Shown here: positions 3,560 through 26,596 of the stretch, piece by piece
Layout of the letters: each line of letters starts with the position of its first letter
How positions within the stretch are numbered: the stretch's first letter is position 1
Assembly: GCA_904501925.1 (NCBI GenBank)
Contig: CAJGCO010000005.1
Location: forward strand, 16,219 to 80,218
Source of the DNA: an uncultured Alphaproteobacteria bacterium
GTDB taxonomy: Bacteria > Pseudomonadota > Alphaproteobacteria > RF32 > CAG-239
DNA: 64,000 bases
Direction of reading: 5' to 3'
Notes under the pieces: model-generated
Seen by the model: only the letters and a program-made list of their open reading frames with translations
Told to the model about the DNA's origin: nothing
Databases searched by the model: none
Position numbers and translations under genes: made by a program

Positions 3560-3829
3560 GGTGTCTAATCGTCAATGGAAGCCTGTTGGCAAAAATTCAT
3601 TTACTATTTTGTAAACTAAAATTTTTGCCACAGGACATTGACTTCTATCCACTCAAAATTTTCCTCTTTTATTTTTGAGGAGAGGTGTCTAATCGTCAAT
3701 GGAAGCCTGTTAGTAAAAATTCATTTACTATTTTGTAAACTAAAATTTTTGGAACAAGCCATTGACTTCTATCCACTCAAAATTTTATTCCTTTATTGAG
3801 CGACCTTTGTGGTCGCTCTTATTTTTTTT
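3560..3829 (+). repeat. Tandem duplication of a ~124-bp intergenic module (copy 1 3560-3683, copy 2 3684-3829). Each copy contains a conserved GTG-initiated 17-codon micro-ORF (VSNRQWKPV[G/S]KNSFTIL*) and ends in a hairpin plus T-run.
   Basis: Direct alignment of the two copies is near-identical apart from one short divergent patch. Terminal hairpins are cctctttt..gaggagag (copy 1) and gagcgacc..ggtcgctc + T9 (copy 2). Confidence 0.8.
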
Positions 3830-7642: not shown

Positions 7643-8516
7643 GTTTTTCCTCATATACTTTTTGTAAATATTGTTTATATGCTACTCCATCTTTTAGATT
7701 AGAGATAAGTTGTTGCATTTGTGTTTTATCAATAAAGCCTTGGCGAAAAGCTATTTCTTCTATGCAAGCAAGTTTTAAGCCTTGGCGTTGTTCTATGATT
7801 TGAACAAACTGTGATGATTCCATTAGGCTATCTGGTGTTCCTGCATCTAACCAAGCATTTCCTCTTTTTAGAGGGATTACGTTTAATCTTTTTTCTTTTA
7901 AGTATAATTTGTTTAGGTCGGTTATTTCAAGTTCGCCACGTTTTGATGGTTTTAATGTTGATGCTTTTTTTATGACGTCATTTGGATAAAAATATAATCC
8001 GGTTACAGCATAGTTTGATTTGGGTTTTAATGGTTTTTCTTCTATAGATTTTACAGAGTTATTTTTATCAAATTCTATAACACCGAAACGCTCTGGATCT
8101 GAAACGTGGAAGCCAAAAACTGTGGCATTGTTGGTGTCTTCATGTACAATTTTTCTATAATTTTTCATTTGTGATTGCATATAAAAGATATTATCACCAA
8201 GTATTAAACATACGTTATCGTTTTTTATGAAATCTTTTCCAATGATAAAGGCTTGAGCAATACCTTCTGGTTTTTCTTGAACTTTATATTGAAGTTTTAA
8301 GCCAAGATTTGAACCATTACCTAATAGCTTTTTTATGTTAGGGGTATCGTTAGGGGTAGAGATTATTAAAATTTCTTTGATACCAAAAAGCATTAAAGTA
8401 GATAAAGGGTAGTATATCATTGGTTTATCATATACTGGTAGTAATTGCTTGGAGATACATTGGGTTAGTGGGTATAATCTGGAGCCAGAACCTCCTGCTA
8501 ATATAATACCTTTCAT
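7629..8516 (-). CDS. rfbA: Glucose-1-phosphate thymidylyltransferase
   Basis: MKGIILAGGSGSRLYPLT nucleotidyltransferase motif; 295 aa, typical of RmlA. Confidence 0.92.
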   Translation of the reverse strand: MKGIILAGGSGSRLYPLTQCISKQLLPVYDKPMIYYPLSTLMLFGIKEILIISTPNDTPNIKKLLGNGSNLGLKLQYKVQEKPEGIAQAFIIGKDFIKNDNVCLILGDNIFYMQSQMKNYRKIVHEDTNNATVFGFHVSDPERFGVIEFDKNNSVKSIEEKPLKPKSNYAVTGLYFYPNDVIKKASTLKPSKRGELEITDLNKLYLKEKRLNVIPLKRGNAWLDAGTPDSLMESSQFVQIIEQRQGLKLACIEEIAFRQGFIDKTQMQQLISNLKDGVAYKQYLQKVYEEKHDLY

Positions 8517-22571: not shown

Positions 22572-22640
22572 ATAAAAAAAATATAAAAATTGATTATACG
22601 TCGTTTAATGTAGTCTAAAAATCTTTTTTGTCAACATTTT
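22572..22640. repeat. R2-right partial repeat (~80% identical to 25812-25880)
   Basis: Alignment: aaaaaaatataaaaattgRttaWacgtYgtttaatRtagtctaaaaa. It overlaps the 3' end of the C26 peptidase gene. Confidence 0.7.
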
Positions 22641-23577
22641 TTTGTGCAATTTTATCAGATATTTTTTGAGGATGTTTTTTCTTGTATTCTTTAGCAAGAA
22701 TTGCAACGTGATTGTATAAACTTTGCATTTGAATATCTCCTTTGGCTGCAAGGTCTTCCGGGTGTCCTTGAATGCATAAAATACCTTCATCACTATTACC
22801 CCATATTTCTGGGATATTATCATCATTAGATATTGCGTAAATATCCATTTTAATTAATGGTTTTTCTTGTACATAATCTTGAATAGAAGAGTGAACCATT
22901 GATTGATTATGGCGAGAATTTATTTTTATTGTGGTAGTATCTTTAGAGATTTTCATTATATCAAAAATTGGTGTATTGGGTATTAGTTTTATATCGTGCA
23001 TAATTACTTGAGATGGTTGTGGTTTATGTGCTGCAGGATGAGGGATTTCTTCCTTTAAACTGCGATACATTTTCATTTTACCTAAGATGGCACCAATCAT
23101 TTGAGCACCAGCACAAATTCCTAGCATTGGTTTTTTGTTTTTATGAGCGTTCATTATTGCGCAATGATATGCGAAATAACGTTTGTTTTCATTAGAGGGT
23201 AAATTTTTATTATCAATGAAAAAATTATCAGGATTATCAAATGCTCCGCCAGGTAAAATAATACCATGACAATTTTTGCATTGTTCATATGTGTTTTCAA
23301 AGTCTAAAAATTTGATTTTAGCACCAGTTTTTAATGTTGTTTCTAAATATGGTTCAGAAATTGTATAAAATTCTTCTTTGGTAATACTTGATTTGTCTTG
23401 CCCAAGGAGAAAACCTAAAGTTGGAGCTGTGCTAGATGTATATGCATTAAAGCCTTTAGGAAGTCTAATGTCTGCTACTATATTTTGTTTTTTTAGTTCA
23501 GCGATGGTTTGTTTAGAAATTCCATAGCTTTCGAATTCATCGATATATTCTAGGTATACTATTTTTGTTTTTATCAT
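22615..23577 (-). CDS. Class I glutamine amidotransferase-like / peptidase C26 (gamma-glutamyl hydrolase, PuuD-like) family protein
   Basis: Nucleophile elbow PMLGICAGAQM and a C-terminal GHPE His-Glu motif. The start is taken at MIKTKIV; the ORF track has it 13 codons upstream. Confidence 0.65.
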   Translation of the reverse strand: MIKTKIVYLEYIDEFESYGISKQTIAELKKQNIVADIRLPKGFNAYTSSTAPTLGFLLGQDKSSITKEEFYTISEPYLETTLKTGAKIKFLDFENTYEQCKNCHGIILPGGAFDNPDNFFIDNKNLPSNENKRYFAYHCAIMNAHKNKKPMLGICAGAQMIGAILGKMKMYRSLKEEIPHPAAHKPQPSQVIMHDIKLIPNTPIFDIMKISKDTTTIKINSRHNQSMVHSSIQDYVQEKPLIKMDIYAISNDDNIPEIWGNSDEGILCIQGHPEDLAAKGDIQMQSLYNHVAILAKEYKKKHPQKISDKIAQKNVDKKDF

Positions 23578-23734
23578 TGTAATCTCCTTTGTAGAGGTAC
23601 ATATGTATAGTATCACTGAAATGGGGTGTTGTCAATAAAAACTAGATAGAGTAAAAGAGATGGATATTGCAAGTCAACTATGAGTAAAAAAATGATATCA
23701 TATGTCGAGGTATGGATATATGAAAGGATAGGAT

Positions 23735-24034
23735 ATGAGCGAAAATATTACAAAAGAAATTGAACAAATCAATACTGAAACATCTGAAAGTATTGATAAA
23801 TTTTTGTATCGGATTATAAATTTATTTTACATTATCAGCCCACTTAAGACGGCAAAACCATTCGTTTTTATCTTTTTTCCAAGTTCCTTCAAGTTTTGCA
23901 CATTCTTCTTTGATTATAACATTTTCATAACAAATTCCTGTATCACTATTTTTAATATGCTAAATTTACAACTTTTTCGCGCAATATATCAAGCTTGTTT
24001 TGAGAGGTTTGAGGTGTTTCAGGTTTTGCTTTAG
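23735..24034 (+). CDS. Possible small protein (doubtful), overlapping the opposite-strand ORF 23952-24203
   Basis: It is preceded by the same tatatgaaaggata-N-ATG Shine-Dalgarno context found before both toxin genes. The sequence becomes F-rich low complexity after ~35 aa. Confidence 0.25.
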   Translation: MSENITKEIEQINTETSESIDKFLYRIINLFYIISPLKTAKPFVFIFFPSSFKFCTFFFDYNIFITNSCITIFNMLNLQLFRAIYQACFERFEVFQVLL

Positions 24035-24203
24035 GTCTTTCAACACCTTGCTCTTCTCGCAATTTCTTGATAATACTTAATTGGTTTGCCATATCTAGCT
24101 TTTTCAAAGCCATTCTTTGTTTATCTGTTAAAGTTAATCCATCTAGCGAAAAATCTTCATCTTCCGGAAGTAAAGAGTTTGATTGCTTCGTGTTTGACTT
24201 CAA
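23952..24203 (-). CDS. Hypothetical small charged protein (83 aa)
   Basis: ORF with a non-biased, charged composition, immediately downstream of immunity-like gene 1. Confidence 0.4.
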   Translation of the reverse strand: MKSNTKQSNSLLPEDEDFSLDGLTLTDKQRMALKKLDMANQLSIIKKLREEQGVERPKAKPETPQTSQNKLDILREKVVNLAY

Positions 24204-24216
24204 TCTATCATTATTG

Positions 24217-24272
24217 CTACATTAATTGTTATTTAAGAGCAACAAGTTCCTCTTAAATAACAATTAATGTAG
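24217..24272. repeat. Perfect 23-bp inverted repeat (ctacattaattgttatttaagag / ctcttaaataacaattaatgtag) with a 10-nt spacer
   Basis: Read directly from the sequence. The right arm overlaps the last 13 codons and stop of the 125-aa ORF. Confidence 0.9.
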
Positions 24273-24610
24273 TTATAAACAATAACTAAAAAAATCAATG
24301 ACAAAATTAATAAAGCTTTTGTTTTGTATTTTTTTAATAACAAAAAAAATGAAAAAATAGTAAATATTAGTGGAAATACAATATTGATAATAATATTTAA
24401 ATATTCTAACAAGGAAGGTTTTTCTATACTGAAAAAAGATGGTGTATAGTTAATGTGCCAGTATTCATAATCAAAAATAAGATAATATAACTCAAATAAA
24501 GAAAATATTAGTATTGATAGATTAATAACCATAAACAAGGTATATATAGACCAAAATAAAAATTTTTTGAATAACTGAATAAATTTATCTTTTGACATTA
24601 ATATTTCCAA
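24233..24610 (-). CDS. Small multi-TM membrane protein, candidate immunity protein for toxin candidate 1
   Basis: 125 aa with 3-4 hydrophobic helices, lying 55 nt downstream of the toxin-like gene on the same strand. Confidence 0.5.
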   Translation of the reverse strand: MEILMSKDKFIQLFKKFLFWSIYTLFMVINLSILIFSLFELYYLIFDYEYWHINYTPSFFSIEKPSLLEYLNIIINIVFPLIFTIFSFFLLLKKYKTKALLILSLIFLVIVYNYINCYLRGTCCS

Positions 24611-24665: not shown

Positions 24666-25556
24666 TTATCTTAATTTTTCTTTAGGATATTTAACATTTA
24701 TTATCATATCCCGACCATATTTTTTTAATTTGTTAAAAAATTCTAATTCATGTTTTGCTAAATCAATGCATCCAGAAGATCCTAGATTAGCACCACCATG
24801 TATAGAAAATTTATTTCTATTATACATTGAATTAGTGTTAAATGGTTCTAACCAAACACGCTTTAGCCCCCATGAGTTCCAACCTCCAGGCGCCATTCCT
24901 CTACCGGTATAACCTAATAAATTACTAACTTTGTCAATATCTTGTACATTGTTTTGTTTTATTCTATAACTTCCTTCAGGTATTGGTCCTTTATTTATTA
25001 AATTTTGATATTTCTTTTCTTGATATTCGGATTTTCCGCTCATTGCTGGCAATTCTAAAATTGTATGCCCATTTTCAATAAAACGTAAATATTGACCATC
25101 AAAATCAACTCGAGATAAATTATCATAATTAATTAATTTATTATATGCATGATTTATTCGATTTATAATATTTTCATTATTTAGATTATCGTCTTCGGAA
25201 TAATCATTTAATGCTTTATAAAAACTAGGAGATAAGCTGTTATTAATTTCTCCCTGAAAATATCCTAAATTTGTTAACATTGTTTTTAATTCTTTTATTT
25301 TAGATAACGTGTCAATAGATGAATTATTACTAGAAATACTATTTTTATTATTCAAAAAATAATTTTCCAGTTGCCTTTCTTCCAAAACTTCTTCTAATGT
25401 TCCGTTAATCTTTGCAAAATCAAAAGCATAAGCATCTTGCAAATTGCCACTTCGCTCAATTTCCCCAACACTTCCGTATTTATCTAAAAGTTCATGTAAT
25501 TTCTTTTTATTTGCTTTTTTGATAGCTATTTCACTATCTCCAATTAAATTAAACAT
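24666..25556 (-). CDS. Candidate peptidoglycan-targeting toxin 1: PG_binding_1-like domain + L,D-transpeptidase-like (YkuD / Tlde1-DUF2778-like) C-terminal domain
   Basis: IKELKTMLTNLGYFQGEINNSLSPSFYKAL resembles the PG-binding domain 1 consensus. FSIHGGANLGSSGCIDL resembles the LD-transpeptidase HG...SxGC(I/V) catalytic signature. There is no signal peptide, and an AAAGGA RBS precedes the start. Confidence 0.5.
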   Translation of the reverse strand: MFNLIGDSEIAIKKANKKKLHELLDKYGSVGEIERSGNLQDAYAFDFAKINGTLEEVLEERQLENYFLNNKNSISSNNSSIDTLSKIKELKTMLTNLGYFQGEINNSLSPSFYKALNDYSEDDNLNNENIINRINHAYNKLINYDNLSRVDFDGQYLRFIENGHTILELPAMSGKSEYQEKKYQNLINKGPIPEGSYRIKQNNVQDIDKVSNLLGYTGRGMAPGGWNSWGLKRVWLEPFNTNSMYNRNKFSIHGGANLGSSGCIDLAKHELEFFNKLKKYGRDMIINVKYPKEKLR

Positions 25557-25760
25557 ATTTTATCCTTTCATATAAAAAAAGAGCTATGCACGAAGCATAA
25601 CTCTTTGGTTAAATTTAAAAACAAAAAAACTCTCCCAAAAGGAAGAGTTCCAACATATAGAATTTTAAGTATAAAATTCCATACTATCAAAATTCATACC
25701 ATCTGGTGTCACTAAAGTCAATACTTTCAGAAAATTTTAATTAAATATTTTTGATTATAT
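25557..25760 (-). promoter_or_regulatory. R1 leader copy 1, transcribed on the minus strand. It holds a sigma70-like promoter (-35 ttgact 25716-25721, 17-nt spacer, -10 tatgaat 25692-25698), a stem-loop, intrinsic terminator T1 (25622-25650, stem ctcttcc/gggagag + U7), intrinsic terminator T2 (25572-25604, 11-bp stem + U7), and an AAAGGA SD before the ATG at 25556.
   Basis: About 85% identical to 29729-29938. The hairpins have compensatory base changes between the two copies. Confidence 0.65.
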
Positions 25761-25766
25761 CCAATT

Positions 25767-25880
25767 GGGGAAAATCGTAAAAAATCTTACAAAATCAAGT
25801 AAAGTGTCTTCTACAAAAAAATATAAAAATTGGTTAAACGTTGTTTAATATAGTCTAAAAAAAATTTTTGTTAATATTAT
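25767..25880. repeat. R2 mosaic repeat (full unit). The left half recurs at 30143-30200 and the right half at 22572-22640.
   Basis: Direct sequence comparison: ggggaaaatcgtaaaaaatcttaYaaaa... and ...aaaaaaatataaaaattggttaaacgttgtttaatatagtctaaaaa. Confidence 0.7.
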
Positions 25881-25915
25881 TTTTAAGCTAATTTTTACTT
25901 TTGGAGTAATACATT

Positions 25916-26596
25916 ATGCGTATATTACCAATTACTATTACGTTTGGAGGCGATATGTCTGAAGAAAAAATATCTAAATTAAAAAATATTCTACCCTATA
26001 AACACAGATTATATACTATTTTATGTTATATAGCATACATCGCTTTCATAATTTTCATGGGGTTTGTATTTTTTAGCCATGCGGATGACTTGAAAATTTT
26101 TATGAGAACAATAAGTTGGCGTCTGACGAAGCCTCAATCCGTTTTAAACATGGCGGTTGCACGTTTTACTTATAGAACATTATTGGAAGTTCCTTTAATT
26201 ATAGTTTACACAATATGTTTATTTAAATCCATAAAAGCAATAATAAACAAAACTTTTTCTTTCTATAGGATAACCATAAAATTCTTAATTATATCTGGTT
26301 TCTTCTTACCTGAGATGTTAATTTTTCCTTGTGCGTGCTCATCAGGCCAAAGAATGGGAATGTCAATATATATCTTTCTTCTAATCCCTTTAATTATGAC
26401 TATAAAAAGTTTAATTAAGAGAAGTAAGAATATAACGTCAACTTTAAAAATTATAATTAATCGAATTTTAATTGGCGCACTTTTGATGATTTCGGCAGGA
26501 TTAATAGTTGGCTTTATTACATTAGCAAATCATGATCCACATGCTGCTTATGAGATGACTGATGAGATGACTGTTAAAACATTTGAAGCTCAATAA
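25916..26596 (+). CDS. Hypothetical polytopic membrane protein (226 aa)
   Basis: 5-6 hydrophobic helices and a GGAG RBS 9 nt upstream. It is convergent with 26677-27291 and shares a terminator with it. Confidence 0.5.
   Translation: MRILPITITFGGDMSEEKISKLKNILPYKHRLYTILCYIAYIAFIIFMGFVFFSHADDLKIFMRTISWRLTKPQSVLNMAVARFTYRTLLEVPLIIVYTICLFKSIKAIINKTFSFYRITIKFLIISGFFLPEMLIFPCACSSGQRMGMSIYIFLLIPLIMTIKSLIKRSKNITSTLKIIINRILIGALLMISAGLIVGFITLANHDPHAAYEMTDEMTVKTFEAQ

Follow-up and report, generated by a model that had tools for sequence, protein, structure and literature searches.

We analysed a window of 64,000 nucleotides from an uncultured alphaproteobacterium (contig CAJGCO010000005.1, positions 16,219 to 80,218), in which two toxin genes share an upstream non-coding block of ~170-205 nt on the minus strand (copy 1, 25557-25760; copy 2, 29729-29938). 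In this block, here called the leader, a promoter is followed by a hairpin (P1) and by two intrinsic terminators (T1 and T2), the second of which abuts the Shine-Dalgarno (SD) sequence of the toxin gene. On the strength of its sequence motifs and by analogy with known systems, we propose with moderate confidence that the element is a dispersed leader of the late-gene type, in which default termination would be relieved by a promoter-proximal processive antiterminator, and that the toxins would thereby be co-regulated with a podovirus-like programme. The leader occurs in many copies in related genomes, its hairpins covary, its promoter motifs recur in front of phage-like genes as well as toxin genes, and toxin cassettes have been exchanged behind it.

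A preliminary description of this locus had placed promoter, stem-loop, T1, T2, SD and ATG on the minus strand, and all of them could be read from the sequence at the same coordinates in both copies (Table 1). A terminator scan recovered all four terminators (T1 and T2 of both copies), and the T1 stems agree with those given earlier (CUCUUCC/GGGAGAG followed by U7 in copy 1, CUCUUCU/AGAAGAG in copy 2), as does the direct junction of T2 with the SD and start codon in both copies. Two details needed correction. The T2 U-tract, described as U7, is U7 in copy 1 and U8 in copy 2; and the two copies, which are indeed repeats of one another (the repeat finder lists them as family D2), are 82% identical over aligned columns rather than ~85%, or 77.5% with gaps included, while their flanks reach 62-65% in the same alignment. 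RNAfold z-scores against dinucleotide shuffles were -8.9 for copy 1 and -6.2 for copy 2. P1 would lie at the 5' terminus of the predicted transcript, or close to it, and it does not overlap T1 in the RNAfold structure of either copy. By analogy, the TAGTAT-GG sequence of copy 1 is a candidate sigma-dependent pause or loading element. Lastly, three sites in the window (23718-23730 on the plus strand, 25561-25573 and 29734-29746) carry the SD context ATATGAAAGGATA, versus 0.34 expected, which bears out the third occurrence claimed earlier; this third site is probably the remnant of a leader 3' end and of the first codons of a lost cassette.

Table 1. Positions of the leader elements and of the toxin and candidate immunity genes in the window.
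Feature	Position	Strand	Description and basis
Copy 1 promoter	25693-25721	-	-35 TTGACT 25721-25716; 17-nt spacer with TGACA; -10 TATGAA 25698-25693
Copy 1 -10-like hexamer TAGTAT, then GG	25679-25686	-	6 nt 3' of the -10
Copy 1 hairpin P1	25655-25684	-	13-bp stem, UACU loop (RNAfold)
Copy 1 intrinsic terminator T1	25623-25651	-	GAACUCUUCC/GGGAGAGUUU + U7; terminator scan; hairpin free energy (dG) -13.1 kcal/mol
Copy 1 T1-T2 spacer, U/A-rich	25607-25622	-	GUUUUUAAAUUUAACC; almost unchanged across alignments A4 and A6
Copy 1 intrinsic terminator T2	25574-25606	-	AAAGAGUUAUGC/GCAUAGCUCUUU + U7; abuts the SD
Copy 1 SD context and toxin 1 start codon	25554-25573	-	AUAUGAAAGGAUA; SD AAGGA 25567-25563; ATG 25556
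Copy 2 promoter	29871-29899	-	TTGACA 29899-29894; 17-nt spacer with TGTCA; TATGAA 29876-29871
Copy 2 -10-like hexamer TAGCAT, then GG	29857-29864	-	Sequence
Copy 2 hairpin P1	29833-29862	-	Fold and 12-copy alignment
Copy 2 terminator T1	29799-29829	-	AAAGCUCUUCU/AGAAGAGUUUU + U-tract; scan, fold, alignment
Copy 2 terminator T2	29747-29783	-	AAAGAGUUAUGACU/GGUUGUAACUCUUU + U8; scan, fold, alignment
Copy 2 SD context and toxin 2 start codon	29726-29746	-	SD within 29734-29746; ATG 29728
Third SD context	23718-23730	+	No hairpins upstream
Toxin 1	24666-25556	-	~62-amino-acid shared N-terminal region and Tlde1/YkuD L,D-transpeptidase-like domain; PF10908, PF03734
Toxin 2	29099-29728	-	SLT-like (lytic transglycosylase); shared N-terminal domain absent
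Candidate immunity gene 1 (membrane protein)	24233-24610	-	Own promoter TTGACA-N16-TATCGT 24658-24631
Candidate immunity gene 2	28583-29080	-	Travels with toxin 2 in L142, L143 and L154

Extra copies were gathered from contigs encoding homologous toxins, from one genome scan and from one metagenome scan (loci are denoted by L numbers). Full leaders were found in L002/L005, L139, L140, L141, L142, L152 and L154, with four copies on the single 12.5-kb contig of L142, and partial leaders with T1-T2 or T2 only in L001/L004, L006, L152 (17374-17512) and L143. The fourth L142 copy (10467) retains promoter, P1 and T2 but has a broken T1 and no open reading frame (ORF) after it. Twelve copies, all in metagenome-assembled genomes (MAGs) of related low-GC Alphaproteobacteria, could be aligned. 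Distant homologues of toxin 2 in L144 and L146 have plain promoters without the leader, which restricts the element to a single clade. A scan of the genome collection with an SD-anchored pattern gave three real loci in two Alphaproteobacteria MAGs and one chance match, hence the lineage is rare in reference genomes; the metagenome scan with an alignment of the toxin N-terminal domain gave three loci only, yet among the divergent copies these proved the most informative. A covariance model of nine copies matched only the two known copies in the window. Neither an IMG/VR scan with the SD 18-mer nor, among the matches listed, one with a loose T2 pattern returned anything other than chance terminator-plus-SD matches, and the leader had no blastn match among annotated phages and plasmids. 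The preliminary description had also proposed a search of Rfam: around the leader no family reached threshold (the best was the Phe leader, 22 bits versus a threshold of 55, E = 0.3), and over the whole window the only match at gathering level was tRNA-Gly.

The claim that compensatory changes preserve the stems was upheld in the 12 copies. RNAalifold recovers all three hairpins, and 94.9% of cells in the alignment are paired, versus 40-58% when the partners are slid by 1-3 columns. Over the three hairpins, 13 of 27 pairs have changed on both sides, and none of 500 shuffles reaches any of the observed measures. Fitting the alignment to the model favours structure, but the hairpins are also seen in every single-sequence fold. 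P1 (six of ten pairs changed on both sides, 91% of cells paired) and T1 (four of five pairs) covary freely. T2 shows two-sided changes at three of 12 pairs, with 97% of its cells paired; compensated variation is found in its inner pairs (UUAUGC/GCAUAG, UUUUGAUG/CAUCAAAG, UUACGAC/GUCGUGG, AGUCGCGAUA/UAUCGUGACU) and the outer six (AAAGAG/CUCUUU) are constant except in L141: three never vary, and three depart only in one unpaired copy. Nearly invariant, too, is the U/A-rich spacer before T2 across the aligned copies. T1 and T2 pass as canonical intrinsic terminators with 6-8 U; in nine copies their dG ranges from -9 to -14 kcal/mol, and 6-7 of the first 8 nt after the hairpin are U. In the L142 leaders, T1 and T2 are separated by insertions of 60-180 nt, among them three tandem ~57-nt units. 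This GC-richer unit (tggtcatcctcgag...ccacaaa; L142 ~1150-1330 on the minus strand and 7925-8000 on the plus strand) is single in one leader and present as three tandem units, followed by an extra small hairpin (aaagccgtaaggcttt), in another. It has the look of a small repeat, mobile or expanding, which the leader can accommodate.

TTGAC(A/T), a 17-18-nt spacer and a -10 of the form TAnnn(A/T/G) are common to all 13 leader promoters, which by sequence are of a strong, near-consensus sigma-70 type. All 13 also carry, 5-6 nt after the -10, a NANNNT hexamer in which A2 and T6 are invariant (TAGTAT, TAGCAT, TAGTGT, TAATAT, TAATGT, CAGAAT, TATAGT or CATAAT), followed by GG, or by AG in L141. Most have TGWCA at a fixed position of the spacer; the L142 lineage has CCGTCGG instead. 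The two motifs go together: among 97 matches to the -35/-10 pattern in ~300 kb, 11 have TGWCA, all 11 of these have the -10-like element, and 81 have neither. The composite promoter pattern was found at 19 sites versus 1.8 expected. These counts overstate independence since the copies are related; three of the sites, however, are non-toxin promoters in which the -10-like element is present, and they provide more independent support than the related leader copies. The promoter at L001 13090 is followed by two terminators and then by scaffold-like, head/capsid, tail-tubular and internal-virion genes; that at L153 8699 by a terminator, a tail or head-fibre gene and a toxin, in that order; and that at L141 598 by a hairpin and a terminator, T7-like tail-fibre, holin-like and unknown genes, and finally a full toxin leader with a GH108 toxin. 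None of these promoters before phage-like genes has a P1-like hairpin.

We noted T7-like podovirus genes in the related MAGs at L001 1-2374 and 13090-21164, L153 8699-11176 and L141 598-3639. The set comprises portal, scaffold-like, head, tail tubular, internal virion, giant LPD23, tail-fibre and holin proteins. These genes are interleaved with host-type genes and with toxins that share the N-terminal region of toxin 1, which suggests a domesticated phage-like particle; within the 64-kb window there are no podovirus-like structural genes.

We therefore need to consider how such a leader might operate. In the default state the near-consensus sigma-70 promoter would fire constitutively, RNA polymerase would stop at T1 and any escapers at T2, and the product would be a short P1-T1 RNA of ~60-70 nt; the peptidoglycan-hydrolase toxin would stay silent, and the immunity gene would keep its own promoter. 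Upon induction, a putative antiterminator would load onto RNA polymerase in the promoter-proximal region, for which TGWCA in the spacer is one candidate signal; the other is the TAnnnT-GG element, placed 5-6 nt past the -10 and possibly causing a sigma-dependent pause. The modified polymerase would then ignore T1 and T2 and transcribe the toxin. We infer the transcription start, the efficiency of termination, the pause and any role of P1, and likewise the existence and nature of the antiterminator. The toxins would be induced together with the phage-derived particle and lysis programme, because the same class of promoter, followed by terminators, precedes capsid, tail-fibre and holin genes in related genomes. 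Being common to many cassettes, the leader also offers a stretch of homology on their 5' side where incoming toxin-immunity cassettes take the place of older ones.

Several observations weigh against this scheme. Pfam searches of 40 ORFs of the window gave no antiterminator candidate, only housekeeping genes such as that for NusB, the precomputed Pfam lists of the fetched loci contain no Q, AlpA, GafZ or NusG paralogue, and clustering of all ORFs of these loci gave no conserved small protein beside the leaders. The 204-amino-acid product of ORF 26677-27291 has no Q-like fold (AlphaFold2 model with a predicted local distance difference test score of 73; nothing below E = 0.1 in a Foldseek search of the PDB). 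Copies without promoter and P1 exist behind ordinary genes (L001/L006 after a GH77 gene, and L152 17374), and these therefore could not themselves load a promoter-bound factor. Moreover, NANNNT is common in AT-rich DNA, so that its weight lies in the fixed spacing and in conservation among related, non-independent copies. Finally, the covarying P1, the near-constant T2 base and the conserved T1-T2 spacer are explained neither by Q nor by any other model. Because no antiterminator protein was found, we describe the element as working like a Q-type leader and do not file it as a proven member of that class.

The leader hairpin of LoaP systems binds a specialised NusG paralogue, and the put RNA of HK022 acts on RNA polymerase directly. 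An RNA-based processive antitermination of this kind, with nascent P1 recognised by a NusG paralogue or another RNA-binding factor or itself acting on the polymerase, appears quite unlikely to us as the mechanism here. The compensatory changes at six of the ten P1 pairs and a conserved (A/G)UGGA in the P1 5' arm are consistent with it, as is the position of P1 upstream of both terminators without overlap, an arrangement also reported for LoaP-dependent leaders (PMC12691694). The same (A/G)UGGA segment nevertheless coincides with the -10-like hexamer at the DNA level, the P1 loops vary in sequence and in length (4-14 nt), neither the window ORFs nor the fetched loci contain a NusG paralogue or KOW match, and promoters of the same class before phage-like genes do without P1 altogether.

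Next, we considered the RNA products of the leader. The preliminary description had offered two options, the first being a ~65-nt RNA ending at T1, as a candidate antitoxin or regulator. Such an RNA is almost certainly made; the antitoxin or trans-regulatory role found no support. A strong promoter with efficient terminators must yield an abundant small RNA (sRNA) with a protective 5' hairpin, and, with T1 blocked, the pyrimidine-rich T1 5' arm has its complement in the purine-rich SD region. That the ~60-70-nt P1-T1 transcript is a functional sRNA, acting for instance as an RNA antitoxin or by repressing translation of the toxin, is nonetheless very unlikely in our judgement. No single-stranded stretch or loop is conserved and the P1-T1 linker is variable at 0-8 nt, which speaks against a trans-acting sRNA with a seed; the stems covary freely, as in elements conserved for structure only. 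The toxins are peptidoglycan hydrolases of a secreted type, not RNases, with candidate protein immunity genes downstream, there are none of the tandem RNA repeats that mark type III antitoxins, and the phage-gene promoters of the same class lack P1.

We also noted that the T1 3' arm resembles the SD of its own gene: GGGAG is found with an SD of GGAG/GGGAG, and GGAAAGAG or AGAAGAG with an SD of GAAAGGA (window 25623-25651 compared with 25561-25573, and the same regions in nine other copies). Because of this likeness the T1 5' arm amounts to an anti-SD. Single-copy predictions for eight of nine copies have the T1 U-tract paired with the A/G-rich SD region around T2, a region that is poorly aligned across copies. 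The pairing could be a translational lock, or mere U-rich and A-rich composition.

The second option of the preliminary description was regulated antitermination or a riboswitch-like switch. Of the two options, regulated antitermination is the better supported, in the form of a processive, factor-dependent mechanism; the switch found no support. A classical attenuator or riboswitch, in which a ligand, a tRNA, a protein or a translating ribosome would toggle terminator and antiterminator folds, is extremely improbable, even though the leader is long, highly structured and conserved and several copies have a mini-ORF from the conserved ATG/GTG of TAnnATGG. Blocking the 3' arms of the terminators in folding left P1 intact and brought out no conserved competing helix. 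The two terminators are independent, each needing a switch of its own, and insertions of 60-180 nt between them are tolerated; without a conserved alternative fold, and given these insertions, we do not regard the leader as a riboswitch or attenuator. Rfam, with a best E of 0.3, likewise offered no family at threshold. A leader peptide was rejected, as the mini-ORFs differ in length and sequence in every lineage (MEFYT, MDFYA, MENSIL, MWGFISLY, M-stop).

Cassette exchange at the leader is seen most directly by comparing copy 2 with L154. The two share the upstream flank and the leader, with 100% identity over ~29974-29870 (promoter block), and the transcribed part of the leader shows compensatory differences in P1, T1 and T2. 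Homology stops at the SD: the L154 leader drives a GH108 toxin with the shared N-terminus, and toxin 2 lies displaced downstream without its first 157 nt, together with the immunity gene at 95.6% identity. The window itself contains orphan fragments. One (23965-24215, minus strand) comes from the middle of a toxin of the N-terminal family and lies a short way past immunity gene 1; the other (27387-28057, plus strand) is an inverted toxin 2 3' end with an immunity-2 gene broken into three short ORFs. In view of the L154 exchange and of these orphans, the leader is also the 5' junction of cassette replacement. The locus thus has the pattern of a polymorphic toxin cassette, namely a conserved 5' module, a variable toxin with its immunity gene, and truncated orphans. 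This junction role goes beyond the preliminary description, as do the conserved -10-like element, the spacer motif and the tie to phage-like late genes.

These observations could also be read without any dedicated regulator: toxin mRNA from the strong promoter would be reduced by the tandem terminators to a low constitutive trickle, the cassette would be insulated, and the block would be kept mainly as a homology arm. We consider this unlikely, if well worth weighing. Replacement exactly at the leader (L154 versus copy 2), the orphan toxin and immunity fragments, the existence of promoter-less copies, and a T2 base and T1-T2 spacer that are conserved in sequence beyond structure would all fit it. 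Recombination homology, on the other hand, needs no compensatory upkeep of hairpins, and this reading leaves unexplained why two strong terminators should come after, and not before, a consensus promoter, and why TGWCA and the -10-like element should be tightly associated in non-homologous phage-like promoters.

If processive antitermination is indeed at work, uncultured gut bacteria keep cell-wall toxins that are dangerous to themselves transcriptionally locked and release them with a phage-derived programme, and Q-type antitermination would extend from single phage or gene transfer agent (GTA) operons to a dispersed multi-copy leader on exchangeable cassettes. The compact element of ~170 nt, with its strong covariation in RNA and its motifs in DNA, can be used to find members of the regulon and the missing antiterminator. 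We entertain a bolder version only tentatively, and think it unlikely: the leader would be the regulon mark of a domesticated podovirus-like particle (GTA- or tailocin-like), one antiterminator would switch the particle genes and the exchangeable toxins together, and P1 and the T2 base would be recognition features of a mechanism outside Q, N, put, RfaH and LoaP. Within that version, the shared toxin N-terminus is possibly a signal for loading into the particle or for release with it.

The toxin labels of the preliminary description proved reasonable. Toxin 1 contains Tlde1/YkuD domains, and two homologues of toxin 2 (P0095 and P0101) carry PF01464 (SLT) as faint matches, the toxin 2 protein of the window itself having no Pfam match. 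The N-terminal region of toxin 1 is 60-98% identical to that of many proteins with other C-termini (GH108, VgrG3-C-like lysozyme and others), and these proteins are a polymorphic toxin family: the shared region, up to ~165 amino acids in most members (P0015-P0081), is fused to at least four peptidoglycan-hydrolase C-termini. It matches no Pfam or PHROG family and gave no tblastn match in 50,697 phage records. Relatives, where a source is named, come from Alphaproteobacteria MAGs. Each of the two toxin genes has a small gene after it, placed as an immunity gene would be; immunity gene 1 is a candidate by its position.

The toxins sit in a low-GC island flanked by holB and tRNA-Gly, and the remainder of the window is an ordinary Gram-negative chromosome of ~31% G+C with genes for pyruvate:ferredoxin oxidoreductase, rml, kdtA, lpxK, nusB and rplJL. 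A 28-nt exact direct repeat (28199-28226 and 30467-30494), consisting of the last 17 nt of tRNA-Gly(CCC) and the next 11 nt, flanks a 2.27-kb segment with leader copy 2, toxin 2 and immunity 2, much as att sites would bracket a small integrated islet that lacks an integrase. A third, degenerate copy of the tRNA end (30266-30308) and a 67-nt D3 repeat beside each site (28099-28165 and 30368-30434) suggest serial insertions at tRNA-Gly. The D5 repeat (25756-25804 and 30133-30181; …GATTTTTTACGATTTTCCCCAA…) abuts copy 1; at copy 2 it is found ~195 nt further upstream, and L154 contains it twice, in one case beside an integrase fragment. The D4 repeat (22575-22643 and 25815-25883) is at the other edge of the island; D4 and D5 may be island-end or recombination sequences.

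Between the two cassettes, a multi-pass membrane protein without a family (25916-26596, plus strand) is encoded tail-to-tail with the Cys-rich 204-amino-acid protein mentioned above (26677-27291, minus strand), which has only four close homologues and no family, and for which an exact look-up found no record. The pair recurs in other contigs beside cell-division genes. We rejected the latter protein as a regulator since the pair is conserved in other contigs without a leader after it. Ankyrin-repeat proteins are encoded near toxin cassettes in L001 (3307-5028), L152 (12803-14524) and L153 (11226-12947), and the window has one at 32509-33216 on the plus strand, ~2 kb past tRNA-Gly. Elsewhere in the window, two tandem 114-nt repeats (3560-3673 and 3684-3797; 92% identical, at a spacing of 124 nt) immediately follow the pyruvate:ferredoxin oxidoreductase gene.

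Among known systems, the lambdoid late leader PR'-qut-tR' combines a constitutive promoter, a -10-like element and a terminator, and Shiga toxin genes lie downstream of tR' in a Q-dependent manner. The leader described here similarly has a near-consensus sigma-70 promoter, a -10-like element just past the -10 and intrinsic terminators within ~100-200 nt that would give a short abortive RNA, with lysis, toxin or morphogenesis genes downstream. It differs in that no Q-family gene was found in the window and the fetched loci, and in that many dispersed copies each precede a single toxin cassette, whereas the lambdoid leader is found once per phage. Other differences are the covarying 5' hairpin, the two terminators, the second of which abuts the SD, and the low-GC gut alphaproteobacterial host.

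Alphaproteobacterial as well is PbgtA-K of the Bartonella GTA (BaGTA), where a constitutive promoter (TTGACA-N17-TATCAT) with a NANNNT element 5 bp downstream is followed by a leader terminator that the Q21-like BrrG reads through, and where mutation of A2 and T6 of NANNNT abolishes expression (bioRxiv 10.1101/2024.11.20.624540). In both cases a leader terminator silences, or is predicted to silence, a strong constitutive promoter, and antitermination would link dispersed loci of a domesticated phage-like element. The BaGTA leader is single and ~860 nt long with one weak predicted terminator; here the leader is ~140 nt long and multi-copy with two strong terminators, and the genes that it would control include polymorphic toxins. 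In Caulobacter, GafZ bypasses terminators in the GTA cluster, and GafZ, lambda Q and AlpA all have (putative) binding elements between the -35 and the -10 (PMC11150451). The TGWCA of our leaders occupies that position and is a candidate binding site; as a factor would here, GafYZ and Pseudomonas AlpA overcome terminators to switch on lysis or particle genes at several loci. By contrast, GafZ and AlpA were not detected in the window and fetched loci, and the Caulobacter terminator lies inside the cluster and is made of 150-bp GC-rich repeats. The LoaP leaders of antibiotic gene clusters (PMC12691694) share with the present element a small 5' hairpin upstream of intrinsic terminators and processive read-through; the LoaP gene, however, adjoins its target operons, whereas no NusG paralogue lies near any copy here, and the phyla are different.

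With ToxIN, a type III toxin-antitoxin system, the leader shares the order of promoter, short structured RNA, terminator and toxin gene. It differs from ToxIN in that the repeat finder and a reading of the sequence gave no tandem antitoxin repeats, in that the toxins are peptidoglycan hydrolases and not endoribonucleases, and in that the immunity genes are protein-coding. Finally, Rhs, contact-dependent inhibition (CDI) and other polymorphic-toxin loci resemble the present one in their conserved 5' region, their variable toxin and immunity genes and the 5'-truncated older toxins displaced downstream. There, the role of recombination junction usually falls to a long, conserved coding N-terminus; here, the homology includes the non-coding leader and, for toxin 2, consists of it only, making a non-coding leader the junction for the replacement of polymorphic toxins.

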